Below the pieces are notes generated by a model. The model ran no database searches. It was given only the letters and a program-made list of their open reading frames with translations, and was not told the DNA's origin. Below, piece after piece: positions 15,843-32,565 of a stretch of 64,000 nt of DNA (the first letter of the stretch is position 1; each line of letters starts with the position of its first letter). The position numbers and the translations under genes are program-made. The DNA is from Shigella phage ESh27: the sequence record ON528737. One strand, written 5' to 3'.

Positions 15843-15871
15843 GTTTACTTCTTCCCTGGATGTGTTAGTAT
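15843..15871 (+). promoter_or_regulatory. early sigma70-type promoter
   Basis: -35 GTTTAC, 17-nt spacer ending GATGTGT, -10 TAGTAT; GAGGAAA leader follows. Confidence 0.55.
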
Positions 15872-15900: not shown

Positions 15901-16293
15901 ATGGAAATCGGAAAATCTTATATCATTAACCCTTTATTTAAAGACGACTTTGTTCAAGAAGCACCACACAATAACGCTAAGATGTTAAAATTGATTGAAC
16001 TCCATGGGCCTAGTTTTGTTGTAAACGGAATGGAACCTGATTATGATAGCGATACGCCAAACGTAGTAAGTGTAACTATGGAAGATGGTACTGTATGTTC
16101 TGCCGCTGGTGAAATTGAAACTTATTTTGAGATTTATCCTGACGAGTTCAAATACTTTACTGAGGTAGATTTAGTAAAGCCTCAACCTACTAACGAAGGT
16201 ATAACTTTAGGTGTAACAAAAATCCATTGTATCGTAGATGAAACCAACGTCGACGAAATCATCGAACTTTTGCAAAAAACTTTTAAAAAGTAG
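15901..16293 (+). CDS. hypothetical protein (130 aa; frd-upstream accessory ORF)
   Basis: ORF track; own early promoter at 15843-15871 and purine-rich leader. Confidence 0.5.
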   Translation: MEIGKSYIINPLFKDDFVQEAPHNNAKMLKLIELHGPSFVVNGMEPDYDSDTPNVVSVTMEDGTVCSAAGEIETYFEIYPDEFKYFTEVDLVKPQPTNEGITLGVTKIHCIVDETNVDEIIELLQKTFKK

Positions 16294-16355
16294 TGTATAA
16301 TCAGATAGGGTTATGTTATAGTAGCCCTATCAAATCAAAAGTGAAGGAGAATAAA

Positions 16356-16604
16356 ATGAGATTACAACGTCAGAGCATCAAAGATTCTGAAGTTAAAGGT
16401 AAATGGTATTTCAACATCGTTGGTAAAGACGCTGAACTCCTTGAACAAGCTGAAGAAGCTTTACGTGAAATGGGTTGGAATGAAGAATGTGATGGATGTC
16501 CACTCTACGAAGACGGCGAAAGTGCAGGATTCTGGATTCACCACTCTGACGTTGAATCGTTTAAAGCCGATTGGAAAGTTGTTAAGAAAAATCTGAGGAA
16601 ATAA
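16356..16604 (+). CDS. hypothetical protein (82 aa)
   Basis: ATG 16356 preceded by GAAGGAGA SD; the track's longer start at 16293 lacks an SD. Confidence 0.45.
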   Translation: MRLQRQSIKDSEVKGKWYFNIVGKDAELLEQAEEALREMGWNEECDGCPLYEDGESAGFWIHHSDVESFKADWKVVKKNLRK

Positions 16605-29372: not shown

Positions 29373-29705
29373 ATGTCTGAAGTACAACTCCCAATTCGTG
29401 CTGTTGGTGAATATGTCATTCTGGTTTCTGAACCCGCTCAAGCAGGTGATGAAGAAGTTACCGAATCAGGACTTGTGATTGGTAAACGTGTTCAAGGTGA
29501 AGTTCCTGAACTATGTGTAGTTCATTCTGTAGGTCCTGATGTTCCTGAAGGTTTTGTTGAAGTCGGTGATTTGACTCCACTACCAGTTGGACAAATTCGA
29601 AATGTTCCACATCCATTTGTGGCTTTAGGTCTTAAACAACCTAAAGAAATTAAACAGAAATTCGTAACATGCCACTATAAAGCTATTCCGTGTCTTTATA
29701 AGTGA
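29373..29705 (+). CDS. 31: gp31 co-chaperonin (GroES analogue for capsid folding)
   Basis: 110 aa; [34 protein letters not shown]...[11 protein letters not shown] essentially as recalled for T4 gp31. Confidence 0.94.
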
Positions 29706-29713
29706 TATAAATA
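29706..29713 (+). promoter_or_regulatory. possible late promoter TATAAATA upstream of rIII
   Basis: Exact TATAAATA directly after gene 31 stop, ~118 nt before rIII ATG. Confidence 0.3.
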
Positions 29714-29829
29714 ACTATATGAAGAGAACACTCTTCTAAGCGGTAGCCTACAACTGAGAGACTTGTCGAAAGAAGGTGAAATTCAGACGAACGTGGCTAC
29801 TAAATATTATCTCGAATTGAGAATTTAAA

Positions 29830-30078
29830 ATGATTAAACAATTACAACACGCTCTTGAACTGCAACGCAACGCATGGAATAATGGCCACGAAAACTACGG
29901 CGCGTCAATTGATGTTGAAGCCGAAGCACTGGAAATCCTGCGATATTTCAAACATCTGAATCCAGCACAGGCCGATCTTCGTGATATCCTGGCTCAGAAA
30001 GATGAATTGAAATATGCTAAGCCTCTGGCTTCAGCAGCTCGTAAAGCAGTTCGTCATTTTGTTATTACCCTGAAGTAA
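29830..30078 (+). CDS. rIII: rIII lysis-inhibition accessory protein
   Basis: 82 aa (T4 RIII 82 aa); position after gene 31. Confidence 0.85.
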   Translation: MIKQLQHALELQRNAWNNGHENYGASIDVEAEALEILRYFKHLNPAQADLRDILAQKDELKYAKPLASAARKAVRHFVITLK

Positions 30079-30448
30079 GTTAAATCGAGGAGCCGTCGAA
30101 TTGTCTGATTATCGATTTGCGAATCGGTATGTTTTAGAAGTACCGCCCCGACAATTTTACGGTGTACCTCTTGAATGTTGTTCTTATAACGGTAAGTGCA
30201 TGCTACCCCGAGGTGATGGCTAATCGGGAGTACGCCTCAAGGCCTATATATCCATCAGTATATATCTTATCCTCGAGAAATCGAACCCGGAACCTTTAAG
30301 CTAACGGTGTGCAACAGATAAGAGTTATAAGGTATGATGACGGGTTTATGGTTATCCTGTCGTTAAATATCCAAAACCTATGTTCCCCTTGAGGGCTTGA
30401 GCAGGCAATGTCAATAAGTCCTGCATTTTCATTTAAAGAGAATTTATA

Positions 30449-30625
30449 ATGGCAAAACAAACTAAAGCAAAGAAAGCAGTTGAAAAGAAAGTCGGTGATT
30501 CTAAACGCGCTGGATACAAGCGTGGGTCGAACTCTCGTATTAATCAAACAGTTGAGAAGATCATGCGCAGAGCACGTGCAGTTCTTCGAGATGATGCTTC
30601 TCGTTTTGGAAAGGTTGTTGCATAA
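30449..30625 (+). CDS. small basic protein (58 aa, Lys/Arg-rich)
   Basis: ATG 30449, stop 30623-30625, followed at 30631 by a perfect GGGAGAC-UUCG-GUCUCCC terminator; below the track's length cut-off. Confidence 0.5.
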   Translation: MAKQTKAKKAVEKKVGDSKRAGYKRGSNSRINQTVEKIMRRARAVLRDDASRFGKVVA

Positions 30626-30630
30626 TTTTA

Positions 30631-30652
30631 GGGAGACTTCGGTCTCCCTTTT
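30631..30652 (+). terminator. rho-independent terminator after small basic-protein gene
   Basis: GGGAGAC-TTCG-GTCTCCC hairpin followed by TTTT. Confidence 0.7.
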
Positions 30653-30684
30653 GTGTGTTTAGGGCAGAAAAAGTTTAAAAAGAT

Positions 30685-30713
30685 GTTTACTCTCCTGTAG
30701 GATGTGTTACTAT
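30685..30713 (+). promoter_or_regulatory. early sigma70-type promoter (paralogue A cassette)
   Basis: -35 GTTTAC, 17-nt spacer ending GATGTGT, -10 TACTAT. Confidence 0.55.
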
Positions 30714-30755
30714 AGACTTGTACCACCTAATCAATAAAACAAACTGGAGAATAAA

Positions 30756-31124
30756 ATGAAAATCAATCTGAACTCATACATCGAATGTAAAGACCACGAC
30801 GGTTATAAAGCTATCGAAATTAAAGAATTCCAGTGGATGTTATACAAAGAGCAATTTGAGATCGTAGGTTGTATGACCCCTGAAGGTCCTTCAAATGATT
30901 TCTCTTGGAAAATTGTGTTAGCAAACTTTTTCACAGGTGACACATACGAATTAAAAACTATTATTACCGGTAAAATTCGTTCAGAAACATATGTTGACGA
31001 AGAAACTGGTTACTCTGAAGATGTTACATGGTATCAAAATGGACGCATTACAGCAGATAACCTTATCGAAAAAATGAAAGCCAAAGGTGTTTTAAATTTA
31101 GACAATTGGATTAAAGTTGCATAA
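30756..31124 (+). CDS. hypothetical protein (122 aa), paralogue A
   Basis: Own early promoter 30685-30713 and GGAGAATAAAATG leader; shares CMTP-containing core with the next ORF. Confidence 0.55.
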   Translation: MKINLNSYIECKDHDGYKAIEIKEFQWMLYKEQFEIVGCMTPEGPSNDFSWKIVLANFFTGDTYELKTIITGKIRSETYVDEETGYSEDVTWYQNGRITADNLIEKMKAKGVLNLDNWIKVA

Positions 31125-31128
31125 AACA

Positions 31129-31157
31129 GTTTACTTTGGTACAGGTTATGTTATTAT
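31129..31157 (+). promoter_or_regulatory. early sigma70-type promoter (paralogue B cassette)
   Basis: -35 GTTTAC, 17-nt spacer, -10 TATTAT; leader nearly identical to cassette A. Confidence 0.55.
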
Positions 31158-31198
31158 AGACCTGTACCAACAAACAACTTAAACATCCGGAGAATAAA

Positions 31199-31564
31199 AT
31201 GAACTACATCAACTTCGAACGTAAATATGTTTCTAACGGTATCGCTGGTTCTTCTGAAGTTATTTGCTTATGGAAACACAAAAACGGTACAGTTTGTGAA
31301 ATCGAACAGTGCATGACTCCTAATTACGTTTATATGCGATTTGAAAATGGCATCACGGTTTCAATCACGATGGAAGGTTCTACTTTTAAAATCGCTTTAG
31401 ATGATGATTTCCGTCAACGTGATTTAGGTACTCATCCTTGCTGGAATGGTGTTAATCGTAAACTTCTGGTTAAAACTTGGATTCGTCATATCCTGAGTAA
31501 CCGAGCTAAACCTGAACATCTCGAAGCAATCTTTGATGTAGTTCTTAATGAATTCGATATCTAA
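31199..31564 (+). CDS. hypothetical protein (121 aa), paralogue B
   Basis: Own early promoter 31129-31157 with leader nearly identical to that of paralogue A. Confidence 0.55.
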   Translation: MNYINFERKYVSNGIAGSSEVICLWKHKNGTVCEIEQCMTPNYVYMRFENGITVSITMEGSTFKIALDDDFRQRDLGTHPCWNGVNRKLLVKTWIRHILSNRAKPEHLEAIFDVVLNEFDI

Positions 31565-31570
31565 TTTAAC

Positions 31571-31588
31571 TGGGAGCTTCGGCTCCCA
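31571..31588 (+). terminator. intercistronic UUCG-tetraloop hairpin (terminator or processing/stability element)
   Basis: TGGGAGC-TTCG-GCTCCCA; no clear U-run. Confidence 0.35.
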
Positions 31589-31603
31589 ATTGAGGAAAAT
31601 ATT

Positions 31604-31891
31604 ATGTTTATGACCACTTATTTTGATACCCGCAAAAACTTTTGTGAAGTTGTTTTCTCTAAAGCACCTAAAGACCTTCCGGCCCATTTGCAACCTACTA
31701 GCGAGTCAATTAAACACTATGTCAACGTAGTATGTCCTTTGGAGTTTCGTACAGTAAATGGGCATGATACTTTAGCTATCACTAAACTTAATCGTGAAAT
31801 TGACATCGATCCTTCGATCGCAAGTGAAATTAACATTTCTGATATTGGCGGCGGTAATGTTAAATCACATGGCTTTCAGATGAGGTTCTAA
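31604..31891 (+). CDS. hypothetical protein (95 aa)
   Basis: ORF track; GAGGAAAA SD; 30.x slot. Confidence 0.45.
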   Translation: MFMTTYFDTRKNFCEVVFSKAPKDLPAHLQPTSESIKHYVNVVCPLEFRTVNGHDTLAITKLNREIDIDPSIASEINISDIGGGNVKSHGFQMRF

Positions 31892-31895
31892 TAAA

Positions 31896-32114
31896 ATGCT
31901 TAAAAAATTAATCAAGAAATTGTTTGGTACGGAAATGATTGAAGTTACTTATCGTGTAACAGACGTTTTTCCATATTATGCAGAAAACCGTTTAGAACCA
32001 TACGTTACGTCAATTAAAATGCCTAAAAATGACGGAAATTTATCTATCGAAGACCGTATACCTGGTTATGGTCATTGGGCTGATGTTGAAATTATAAGTG
32101 TTAAAGATGTCTGA
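31896..32114 (+). CDS. hypothetical protein (72 aa)
   Basis: ORF track; 30.x slot. Confidence 0.4.
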   Translation: MLKKLIKKLFGTEMIEVTYRVTDVFPYYAENRLEPYVTSIKMPKNDGNLSIEDRIPGYGHWADVEIISVKDV

Positions 32115-32565
32115 ATTAGAAATAAGAAGTAATTTCAAATGGCCGTCATGTGCATTAAGTAATTTCGCCCAATGGCCTTTTGTCATGGATGGTATTCAAT
32201 TCGGAGGTCTTGAAGGATTTCTCCAAGGATGTAAGGTGAAAAATGTTGAACATCAAAGACGTATATTTGGGTTGTCTGGATTGGCTGCACAGCAAGCTGG
32301 AAGGTCTTATGCAAGAGCTCAGGGCCATGGGACTCTCTTCTGGTTAGGAGTTCCATTTTCAAGATACTCTGAAGCGTGGAAAGAATTATACACAAATGCA
32401 TATTTTGAAGCAGCGATCCAAAACAAGGGGTTTCGCGATGCCTTACAAGCCTCTAAAGGAAAAATTTTGAAGCATAGCATGGCCAGCCACCTAACAAAAG
32501 ATGATACAATACTAACTGAAGCTGAATTTATTGATGTGTTAAACCTATTAAGAGACTCTTTATGA
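32098..32565 (+). CDS. YbiA/NADAR-like (DUF1768) protein, 30.3-like
   Basis: 155 aa; FSNF..W, QFGGLEGFLQG, GLSGLAAQQAG resemble YbiA-family N-glycosidase fold; position two genes before ligase. Confidence 0.5.
   Translation: MLKMSELEIRSNFKWPSCALSNFAQWPFVMDGIQFGGLEGFLQGCKVKNVEHQRRIFGLSGLAAQQAGRSYARAQGHGTLFWLGVPFSRYSEAWKELYTNAYFEAAIQNKGFRDALQASKGKILKHSMASHLTKDDTILTEAEFIDVLNLLRDSL

Follow-up and report, generated by a model that had tools for sequence, protein, structure and literature searches.

T4-like phages carry promoter-early stem-loop (PeSL) cassettes (Arbiol et al. 2010, PMC2839356; Comeau et al. 2014, PMC4122927). As these two accounts describe them, a stem-loop stands upstream of the promoter, between its -35 and -10 elements or overlapping the -10 element, and a Shine-Dalgarno (SD) sequence and an ATG lie at the 3′ end (PMC2839356, PMC4122927). 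For the PST/T4 cassettes the promoter consensus is given as TTTACW-N17-TAYWAT (PMC4122927), while excision as mini-circles and termination at the stem-loop in vivo are described as shown experimentally only for RB49/phi1 (PMC2839356). Among the early genes of T4 are 30.7 and 30.8, which belong to this class at both the RNA and the protein level (PMC9697503 supplement); our literature searches found no functional study of gp30.7 or gp30.8.

Here we describe the same two genes in Shigella phage ESh27 (sequence record ON528737), in a window that is one 64,000-nucleotide stretch of DNA read 5′ to 3′. The first-pass annotation of this window had taken the locus for a tandem duplication of a complete promoter, leader and ORF unit followed by divergence, giving two paralogues with a shared core and a conserved Cys-Met-Thr-Pro (CMTP) motif, a pattern that it associated with host-takeover or anti-defence genes. 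In this RB69-like (Mosigvirus) phage the locus most probably holds, instead, two independent early units whose proteins, gp30.8 and gp30.7, are unrelated, with a repeated PeSL-type cassette of ~90 bp acting as a recombination seam.

Results

Genes of the locus

The region is 98.6% identical at the DNA level to Mosigvirus phages, and the RB69 annotation at the same locus reads 30.9/30.8/30.7/30.6/30.4. Three genes concern us here:

30449..30625, + strand: gene 30.9, a 58-aa basic protein, the upstream neighbour (ORF list, RB69 annotation, PHROG 1427)
30756..31124, + strand: gene 30.8, 122 aa, PF06019 (Phage_30_8), PHROG 1507
31199..31564, + strand: gene 30.7, 121 aa, PF06919 (Phage_T4_Gp30_7), PHROG 1582

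Pfam membership was defined as a whole-protein HMM score over the gathering cut-off of the family, which is 25 bits for PF06019 and 27 bits for PF06919. The ORF at 30756-31124 scored 147.6 bits against PF06019 (E = 2.1e-43, profile positions 3-123 of 124) and the ORF at 31199-31564 scored 174.2 bits against PF06919 (E = 9.6e-52, full profile covered); in the Pfam scan, at E <= 1, neither ORF matched the family of the other. Two antisense ORFs, at 30803-30943 and 31424-31693, were set aside as unsupported. The predicted fold of gp30.8 (pLDDT 93.8) is largely beta, with a single helix; that of gp30.7 (pLDDT 83) is built of seven strands, with two helices at the C-terminus. PDB sequence searches with the single proteins and with profiles gave nothing usable, the best match being farnesyltransferase alpha at E 0.3-0.4, and the gp30.8 sequences hold no conserved catalytic-looking pattern. 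Our guess for each of them is a small, non-essential protein with an accessory or binding role. Of the findings here, only the early expression of the T4 orthologues has any bearing on a host-takeover or anti-defence role.

In T4 the two genes occupy the same place, between 30.9 and 30.6, and have evolved at very different rates: gp30.7 here is 93% identical to its T4 counterpart, whereas gp30.8 is only 37% identical to that of T4 and 55% to that of RB69, which places it in a different allele class.

Promoter cassettes and hairpins

The regulatory features of the locus, in order of position, are as follows:

30630..30659, + strand: UUCG-tetraloop hairpin, intrinsic-terminator-like, a stem-loop at 30630-30649 followed by a U-rich tail (terminator scan)
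30667..30755, + strand: 30.8 regulatory cassette, comprising an A/T-rich upstream stretch, promoter, leader and SD block
30685-30713, + strand: 30.8 promoter, GTTTAC-N17-TACTAT, with the -35 element at 30685-30690, a 17-bp spacer and the -10 element at 30708-30713
31115..31198, + strand: 30.7 regulatory cassette, comprising promoter, leader and SD block
31129-31157, + strand: 30.7 promoter, GTTTAC-N17-TATTAT, with the -35 element at 31129-31134, a 17-bp spacer and the -10 element at 31152-31157
31136..31170, + strand: perfect 11-bp inverted repeat TTGGTACAGGT / ACCTGTACCAA flanking the -10 element of the 30.7 promoter, the stem-loop of that cassette
31565..31594, + strand: UUCG-tetraloop hairpin after 30.7, with its core stem-loop at 31571-31588 (RNA fold -14.9 kcal/mol, z -3.2)

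The two promoters, the similar leaders and the ORFs of about 121 aa are thus all present as the first-pass annotation had described them, and the -35 element of the second cassette begins 4 nt after the stop codon of 30.8. Both sites match exactly the features of an early promoter (GTTTAC, a 17-18-bp spacer, TAnnAT and A/T-rich sequence upstream), the 14 nt ahead of the -35 element being AAGTTTAAAAAGAT for 30.8 and AGTTGCATAAAACA for 30.7. T4 early promoters have the same GTTTAC at -35, the same 17-18-bp spacer ending in TGT, the same TAnnAT and an A-rich upstream stretch, and from this consensus and the T4 orthologues both sites are predicted to be T4-type sigma-70 early promoters. T4 early-promoter features recur at ten further sites of the window, all on this strand; the stricter pattern GTTTAC-N17-TANNAT occurs three times in the window, where 0.28 occurrences would be expected.

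The leaders begin with AGACTTGTACCA in the 30.8 cassette and AGACCTGTACCA in the 30.7 cassette, so that their common start is AGACYTGTACCA, and they are A/C-rich. The segments TATAGACTTGTACCA (30711-30725) and TATAGACCTGTACCA (31155-31169) are the sole 0-mismatch copies in the window, and the SD block GGAGAATAAAATG is identical in the two cassettes, at 30746-30758 for 30.8 and 31189-31201 for 30.7, with a third copy at 16346. Compared with the usual T4-type early promoter, both cassettes have a longer leader (~45 nt against ~30 nt) and have GTACCA and GGAGAATAAAATG in common; the leader of the T4 30.8 promoter differs from the 30.8 leader here and is shorter.

As a direct repeat (families D1 and D2), the cassettes align at 74% over one stretch of 57 nt and at 75% over another of 32 nt, the spacing being 444/443, and the repeated part is this ~90-bp regulatory cassette only. 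Among the 55 pairs of early promoters in the window, the 30.8 and 30.7 promoters are the most alike, at 77% against a mean of 63 ± 5%, which bears out the claim of a real promoter and leader repeat. The similarity of the pair is only slightly above the family background, however: the promoters at 15843 and 53843, which are unlinked, agree at 75% overall and at 14/16 positions after the -10 element.

The hairpin at 30630-30659, with an RNA fold of -14.1 kcal/mol (z -2.7), ends the 30.9 unit ~35 nt upstream of the 30.8 promoter. The inverted repeat at 31136-31170 folds at -19.5 kcal/mol (z -4.2), and its 11 bp were reached in none of 2000 shuffles; PEi26 and Roth79 also have a stem at the equivalent position, formed by other sequences (z -6.1 and -4.0, respectively). 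The 30.8 promoter has no inverted repeat around its -10 element (z +1.0), the 5′ arm being absent. Inverted repeats around the -10 element had been suspected at many early promoters of the window, and the shuffle test supports 2 of 12, those at 31129 and 27030; in PEi26, such repeats were seen by eye at all six early promoters scanned. The hairpin after 30.7 is without a U-tract, lies directly ahead of the 30.6 SD and coincides with a mosaic breakpoint in related Mosigvirus genomes; similarity to mar005P1-type genomes ends at query position 1211, ~31610 in the window.

Upstream of the locus, a covarying candidate structured RNA of ~137 nt was seen at 30189-30326. Rfam scans of 29700-32300 and 30170-30345 gave only sub-threshold terminator-like or chance matches.

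Gene exchange at the cassettes

Identity between the window and RB69 is at least 92%, and mostly 95-100%, as far as 30759 and from 31120 onward, whereas across the 30.8 ORF it falls to 50-70%, apart from one 40-nt block at 88%. The cassettes bound a 30.8 allele that is swapped relative to RB69, with edges at 30759 and 31120. In phage WG01 a T4-type 30.8 (40% identity) is paired with a 30.7 at 99% identity, and Roth79, Metamorpho, PEi26, Kosakonia 305 and COW86c carry one or two extra ORFs between the cassettes, amounting to 1-1.5 kb in other genera. In Kpn6N there is a single hybrid cassette, whose upstream half matches the 30.8 promoter region and whose 3′ end matches that of 30.7, with the crossover inside the common GGAGAAT block. 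Such a hybrid joins 30.9 to 30.7 in 33 records of Klebsiella phages (Kpn6N and 32 others), while the other 194 matching records mostly have the two halves at separate places; the junction in the Klebsiella phages could represent an insertion instead of a deletion.

The leaders also vary together, as a comparison of five lineages brings out. Over the 20 nt after the -10 element, the two leaders of one genome are identical at 14-20 of 20 positions in four of the five lineages, T4 being the exception with 6/20, whereas orthologous promoters compared between lineages average only 8.9-10.1/20. Lineage-wide promoter consensus could explain part of this co-variation.

The two proteins compared

The CMTP motif occupies residues 39-42 of gp30.8 and 40-43 of gp30.7. 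BLASTP of one against the other gave 10 identities in 32 positions at E = 0.018 for this single comparison, and the Smith-Waterman score of 37, against 27.3 ± 4.7 in shuffles, was reached by 4.6% of them. Of the shuffles, 14% had a common 4-mer somewhere, and 0.9% had one within ±3 positions. At the DNA level, the ungapped identity of the two ORFs is 28% against a composition expectation of 27%. Profile-profile comparison with hhalign returned a probability of 0.11%, or 0.57% with deeper profiles, and its best stretch lay away from CMTP.

Searches of billions of proteins kept the two families apart. All 58 matches to the gp30.7 family profile were to PF06919 only, with no gp30.8; the gp30.8 profile had 29 matches, mostly proteins of ~100-133 aa, with no gp30.7, and the three weakest of this size were all PF06019 when scanned against Pfam. 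Two SprB-repeat proteins of 1000-1400 aa were rejected as gp30.8 homologues, their 11-12 weak repeated matches being motif-level. With tblastn over ~1000 phage genomes each protein was found at exactly one place per genome (1037 and 996 records) and there was no cross-match between them. In the Foldseek searches with each predicted model, the significant matches among the best 50 listed were likewise to the model's own family only, and none of those of the other family appeared in the list. In other genera genes 30.8 and 30.7 are not adjacent, and each is found without the other.

CMTP is conserved in neither family. The gp30.7 family has YMTP, VSP, WDD, WED or WET at this position, with the cysteine replaced by Y, W or F; in the gp30.8 family, only T41 of the motif comes close to invariance among 31 diverse members, T4 reading ETTE there. 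Taken together, gp30.8 and gp30.7 are not detectably related. No significant protein similarity was found beyond the shared leader, and on the first-pass annotation's own terms its reading falls with that result: the regulatory half of the proposed duplication stands as a repeat, but a duplication of the ORFs, with a shared core and paralogy, is not supported.

Discussion

It is highly improbable, and close to refuted, that an ancestral promoter, leader and ORF unit was duplicated in tandem and that its ORFs then diverged past recognition, with CMTP as the remnant. This reading would account for the near-equal ORF lengths, the same layout and spacing of the units, the regulatory cassettes that are closest to each other, the nearly co-positioned CMTP with its 0.9% frequency in shuffles, the BLASTP E-value and two models that both run from an N-terminal beta meander into a C-terminal helix or helices. 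Yet the hhalign probabilities are negligible and their best stretch is not at the motif, the motif itself varies in both families, and no cross-match appeared in the profile searches, in tblastn or among the Foldseek matches listed. The coding DNA of the two genes is no more alike than chance predicts, unrelated ORFs separate the genes in four other genera, each gene is also found without the other, and the identities of 37% and 93% to T4 speak of very unequal rates.

At the other extreme, the two cassettes might have no specific relationship at all, their similarity being the generic T-even early-promoter and ribosome-binding consensus and their adjacency a matter of chance. Other promoters of the window do have GTTTAC, TGT before the -10 element, TACTAT and AGACTTATCAAC-type starts, and unlinked pairs come close, not only the one at 15843 and 53843 but also pairs reaching 15/16 in Roth79 and 12/16 in PEi26. 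We nevertheless consider this improbable: the 30.8 and 30.7 promoters still rank at the top of 55 pairs; GTACCA, the ~45-nt leader and the exact 13-mer GGAGAATAAAATG are absent from the other promoters; the two leaders co-vary across lineages; a recombinant junction falls inside the common block; and the spacer of the 30.8 promoter, though only 7/17 identical to that of PEi26 without gaps, is by eye recognisably orthologous to it with an indel. Also unlikely is that the common leader is a co-regulation element, bound by a factor of the phage or the host either in the DNA or at the 5′ ends of both mRNAs, and kept by selection and not by recombination. The common segment does begin where transcription is expected to start, each lineage conserves it as a pair, and the inverted repeat of the 30.7 promoter is kept with different sequences, suggesting selection on structure. 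Such a factor would, however, have to co-evolve with a sequence that changes wholly from lineage to lineage (agacctgtacca in one, gtacactcaatc in another); there is no known factor or motif, the Rfam scan of 29700-32300 gave no match, T4 is without leader similarity, the 30.8 promoter is without the 5′ arm of the repeat, and the recombinant junctions show exchange at the site.

Two independent early units that share a repeated cassette remain the most probable reading. Host RNA polymerase would start at both promoters early in infection, with the terminator of 30.9 shielding the first unit from upstream transcription. Because just 4 nt and no U-tract terminator stand between the units, transcripts from the 30.8 promoter would continue into 30.7, and the 30.7 promoter would boost transcription of 30.7 and the downstream genes. 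Since the cassettes are direct repeats, they would also offer the homology by which recombination can exchange, remove or add the gene or genes between them, and such recombination, or gene conversion, would preserve the likeness of the two leaders in any one genome. More tentatively, the cassettes may form an actively homogenised recombination module, in which gene conversion maintains the likeness of the two copies from the -10 element to the start codon in each genome, even as this stretch drifts from genus to genus. The stem of the 30.7 cassette would then be selected as a structure, a proposal based on its persistence with three unrelated sequences. If true, a homogenised module of this kind would tie promoter function to the cassette exchange of accessory genes that evolve fast, of which 30.8 is an example.

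For annotation, gp30.8 and gp30.7 should not be filed as a paralogue pair or as a "CMTP family"; the locus shows the modular build that is ordinary in phages, with no duplicated pair of genes. It offers a clean example, outside the phage pairs originally studied, of repeated early-promoter cassettes as gene-exchange seams. The evidence for such seams lies in an allele swap bounded within a few bases by the cassettes, in a two-state polymorphism within one genus (33 records against ~190) with its junction in the common ribosome-binding block, and in leaders that co-vary across genera.

Comparison with PeSL cassettes

Set beside the PeSL cassettes as the two published accounts describe them, the architecture here fits. 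Both cassettes have an A/T-rich upstream stretch and a predicted sigma-70-type early promoter that fits TTTACW-N17-TAYWAT, and both end in an SD (GGAGAATAAAATG) and a start codon. The stem-loop of the 30.8 cassette would be the 30.9 terminator, upstream of the promoter in what PMC4122927 gives as the PST/T4-type position, and that of the 30.7 cassette lies over the -10 element. The setting is also alike, namely a hyperplastic stretch of small non-essential ORFs with replacement, insertion and deletion of ORFs between tandem copies. The likeness is incomplete: the 30.7 stem-loop is without a U-tract, which makes terminator action doubtful, and the 30.8 copy is without an inverted repeat inside its promoter, so that its stem-loop component is weak unless the upstream terminator is counted. 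Nothing here alters what is known in kind.

The 30.8-30.7 locus

The region 30400-31900 shares 98.6% identity with Mosigvirus phages (among them OLB35 and phiC120) and 89.6% with RB69, in whose annotation the genes run cd, 31.1, 31, rIII, 30.9, 30.8, 30.7, 30.6, 30.4, 30.3 ... 30 (DNA ligase). This order and identity make the two ORFs of the first-pass annotation genes 30.8 and 30.7:

30756-31124, + strand: gene 30.8, 122 aa; PF06019, PHROG 1507
31199-31564, + strand: gene 30.7, 121 aa; PF06919, PHROG 1582

Both Pfam assignments are well over the cut-off (147.6 bits for gp30.8 against PF06019, 174.2 bits for gp30.7 against PF06919), the PHROG assignments are to 1507 and 1582 respectively, and neither protein matches the other's Pfam or PHROG family at E<=1. 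Identity to T4 is 37% for the fast-evolving gp30.8 and 93% for the slowly evolving gp30.7. The T4 orthologues of both are early at the RNA and protein level (PMC9697503 supplement). We found no PDB relative of either protein by sequence or profile, and no functional study of either in the literature; small early accessory genes may serve in anti-defence or host takeover, but none of the present results points that way. A metagenome-contig protein, P0037 (154 aa, predicted), carries PF08010 and the gp30.7 domain PF06919 together, which suggests a deletion or fusion at the 30.7 locus in some uncultured phage.

The repeated cassettes

Each gene is preceded by a cassette of promoter, leader and Shine-Dalgarno (SD) sequence. 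The early promoters P30.8 (30685-30713, GTTTAC-N17-TACTAT) and P30.7 (31129-31157, GTTTAC-N17-TATTAT) are as first annotated, and the pattern GTTTAC-N17-TANNAT occurs three times in the window, where 0.28 would be expected. The leaders are indeed similar, TATAGACYTGTACCA at 0 mismatches being found solely at the two cassette sites, and a repeat finder gives two families of direct repeats, one of 57 nt (74%) and one of 32 nt (75%), spaced by 444 and 443. Copies of GGAGAATAAAATG lie at 30746 and 31189, plus one at 16346. This third exact copy (16346-16358) falls inside a mechanically called GTG-start ORF, 16293-16604, whose true start is therefore probably the ATG at 16356.

The window has about 12 same-strand sites where an SD and an ATG follow the T-even early-promoter pattern. 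When 11 cassettes were globally aligned from -49 to the ATG (55 pairs), those of 30.8 and 30.7 were the most alike, with 77% where the mean is 63+-5%; the second-best pair (75%) belongs to promoters 15843 and 53843, 38 kb apart. The 30.8/30.7 pair ranks second of 66 over the 16 nt after the -10 (13/16) and second in the promoter spacer (10/17). Its similarity exceeds the background, though not by much, and by these rankings the two cassettes are a subfamily of a dispersed set of similar elements.

Are the ORFs paralogues?

To the first-pass annotation the ORFs looked like part of the tandem duplication, diverged paralogues with a common CMTP motif. The DNA-level repeat of the regulatory cassette stands, but it does not extend to the ORFs, whose coding DNA, anchored at the ATG, shows 28% identity where composition alone predicts 27%. 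BLASTP of gp30.8 against gp30.7 gives 10 identities over 32 residues (E=0.018 for a single comparison), and the Smith-Waterman score of 37 against 27.3+-4.7 for shuffled sequences is reached by 4.6% of shuffles. Aligning the family alignments A2 (25 sequences) and A3 (15) with hhalign returns a probability of 0.11%; with the wider alignments A5 (50%-cluster representatives added, exhaustive profile search) and A6 (profile-search hits among 5.8 billion proteins added) it is 0.57%, E=0.1, with CMTP outside the aligned stretch. All 58 hits of the gp30.7 profile search have PF06919 only; the gp30.8 search yields 29 representatives, mostly proteins of ~100-133 aa, and the weakest three of these, scanned against Pfam, have PF06019 in 3/3. 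Across 50,697 phage records, tblastn detects gp30.8 in 1037 and gp30.7 in 996, with a single location in every record, so each query misses the neighbouring gene. The AlphaFold models (pLDDT 93.8 for gp30.8, 83 for gp30.7) differ in secondary-structure order, and in Foldseek searches of BFVD the significant matches of each are its own family only, without overlap among the 50 matches listed for each. The ORFs thus have no relationship detectable by BLASTP, Smith-Waterman, hhalign, profile, tblastn or Foldseek, and the reading as diverged paralogues is not upheld.

The CMTP residues are present in both proteins (39-42 in gp30.8, 40-43 in gp30.7) but are variable in both families. Relatives of gp30.7 have YMTP, VSP, WDD, WED or WET at this position; among 31 diverse relatives of gp30.8 the one near-invariant residue of the four is T41, and T4 gp30.8 has ETTE. 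Shuffled sequences have a common 4-mer in 14% of cases anywhere and in 0.9% position-matched. CMTP is no family feature. What is repeated is the regulatory cassette only; elements of this kind are known, and here the cassette marks recombination seams as well.

The gp30.8 profile search also returned two SprB-repeat proteins of 1000-1400 aa, P0107 and P0111, each with 11-12 low-score matches to profile residues ~14-74; these weak, repeated matches probably reflect resemblance to a short beta-hairpin motif, not homology.

Hairpins around the promoters

30630-30659, + strand: UUCG-tetraloop hairpin with U-rich tail, 3' of 30.9; -14.1 kcal/mol
31136-31146 and 31160-31170, + strand: 11-bp perfect inverted repeat TTGGTACAGGT/ACCTGTACCAA bracketing the P30.7 -10 (repeat finder)
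31571-31588, + strand: second UUCG hairpin, 3' of 30.7, without U-tract, directly 5' of the 30.6 SD

P30.8 begins ~35 nt past the first hairpin and itself lacks an inverted repeat (z +1.0), complementarity extending over 4 nt at most. P30.7 starts 4 nt past the 30.8 stop codon; the 11 bp of its repeat are reached by 0/2000 shuffles, and as RNA the repeat folds at -19.5 kcal/mol (z -4.2), followed 3' by CAAACAAC without a U-tract. Its 3' arm is the segment common to the 30.8 leader.

By shuffle test, an inverted repeat over the -10 reaches significance in 2/12 early promoters of the window. In Edwardsiella phage PEi26 (L010, reverse strand), all six scanned (7115, 8012, 17821, 20633, 26259 and 32366) show, by eye, an inverted repeat of ~9-13 bp bracketing it. 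This stem-loop design is far more widespread in PEi26 than in the phage of the window. The neighbouring PEi26 promoters 7115/8012 are identical at 14/16 nt after the -10.

Comparison across phages

Genes and promoter motifs were mapped in RB69, T4, mar005P1, the Klebsiella Jiaodavirus phages Roth79, Metamorpho and Kpn6N, PEi26, Kosakonia 305 and Erwinia COW86c. Among these, 30.8-30.7 adjacency is confined to the E. coli T-evens; Roth79, Metamorpho, PEi26, Kosakonia 305 and COW86c have 1-2 ORFs of 150-175 aa in between. Past the -10, the P30.8 and P30.7 leaders of any one phage resemble each other, and the lineages differ.

Leader common to P30.8 and P30.7, by lineage
Window: agacYtgtacca
Jiaodavirus: agacctgtaccacccaaac
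PEi26 and Kosakonia 305: gtacactcaatc
COW86c: a.aa.ctcaataa.caa

Over 20 nt, the two leaders of one genome are identical at 14-20 positions in 4/5 lineages, T4 being the exception with 6 (mean 13.8), against means of 8.9 (P30.8) and 10.1 (P30.7) for orthologous promoters across lineages. The promoter spacers show no such within-genome likeness in this comparison. The P30.7 stem is kept with unrelated sequences in the window, in PEi26 (GCTGATTGAGTGT/ACACTCAATCAGC, -23.6 kcal/mol, z -6.1) and in Roth79 (TTGGGTGGT/ACCACCCAA, -25.2 kcal/mol, z -4.0).

Host-genus records number 29 for Aeromonas and 17 for Salmonella with 30.8, and 30 for Salmonella with 30.7, Aeromonas being outside the top genera listed; as these counts differ, gain and loss of the two genes are independent. 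In RB69, whose 30.8 allele is 55% identical to that of the window, P30.8 (L001 2788-2816) has a -10 that reads TTCTAT against TACTAT, losing the key second-position A, and the promoter may be weakened by it.

The ORFs lying between 30.8 and 30.7 in Klebsiella, Edwardsiella, Kosakonia and Erwinia phages (sequences L004 2212-3205, L005 2183-3154, L008 3209-4196 and L007 2406-2927) form a loose family of 150-175 aa. One of them matches frd.2 of the window (PF03197, 15901-16293), which a similar early promoter drives at 15843, and related ORFs also stand just after 30.7 in Roth79, Kpn6N, COW86c and mar005P1. Unlike 30.8 and 30.7, these ORFs do make up a dispersed family of paralogues at this locus.

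Recombination seams

Identity between window and RB69 is at least 92% (mostly 95-100%) as far as 30759 and from 31120 onward, and 50-70% over the 30.8 ORF save for one 40-nt block at 88%. The swapped 30.8 allele thus has the two cassettes as its borders. In the comparison with T4, divergence extends from the end of 30.9 as far as the 30.7 promoter. In phage WG01, a T4-type gp30.8 (40% identity) is found together with a gp30.7 99% identical to that of the window. Kpn6N has a single cassette, with terminator, -35 and spacer as in P30.8 of Roth79 and Metamorpho, and 3' end and ORF those of 30.7; the switch lies inside the common CGGAGAAT block. This junction is contiguous in 33 phage records, and in most of the other 194 matching records the halves lie apart (a total of 336 places in 227 records).

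In mar005P1-type Mosigvirus, similarity to the window ends at ~31610, right after the UUCG hairpin 3' of 30.7, and a 204-aa ORF and 30.5 take the place of 30.6 (L009 2704-3570); ~31610 is another mosaic breakpoint at a hairpin.

A candidate structured RNA upstream

About 30189-30326, + strand: ~137-nt element in the rIII-30.9 spacer

This element keeps 90-99% nucleotide identity, much above the flanking genes, in 369/407 T4-like phage records, from phages of Klebsiella, Escherichia, Enterobacter, Yersinia and other hosts; T4, RB69 and mar005P1 lack it, and an exact 27-mer of it has no match in 185,579 bacterial and archaeal genomes. Sixteen distinct copies give seven helices with 99.4% of cells paired and a GAAA tetraloop on one hairpin. 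Compensatory changes occur at 10/42 pairs, against 4.0+-1.4 in shuffles (10 reached in 0/500) and 0-1 in slid controls, and the G-U pairs point to the + strand. With no match in Rfam, and none found by sequence in the literature, it looks like an undescribed structured RNA.

Relation to PeSL cassettes

[quoted passage not shown] The stem-loop either precedes the promoter, falls between its -35 and -10, or overlaps the -10. For the PST/T4 pair these accounts give the promoter consensus TTTACW-N17-TAYWAT. They also place PeSLs in clusters in hyperplastic regions, beside indels or replacements, and describe mini-circles excised in RB49/phi1 through recombination of tandem copies (PMC2839356, PMC4122927). 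The 30.8 and 30.7 cassettes of the window have the sequence-level hallmarks of a PeSL and fit this kind of element.
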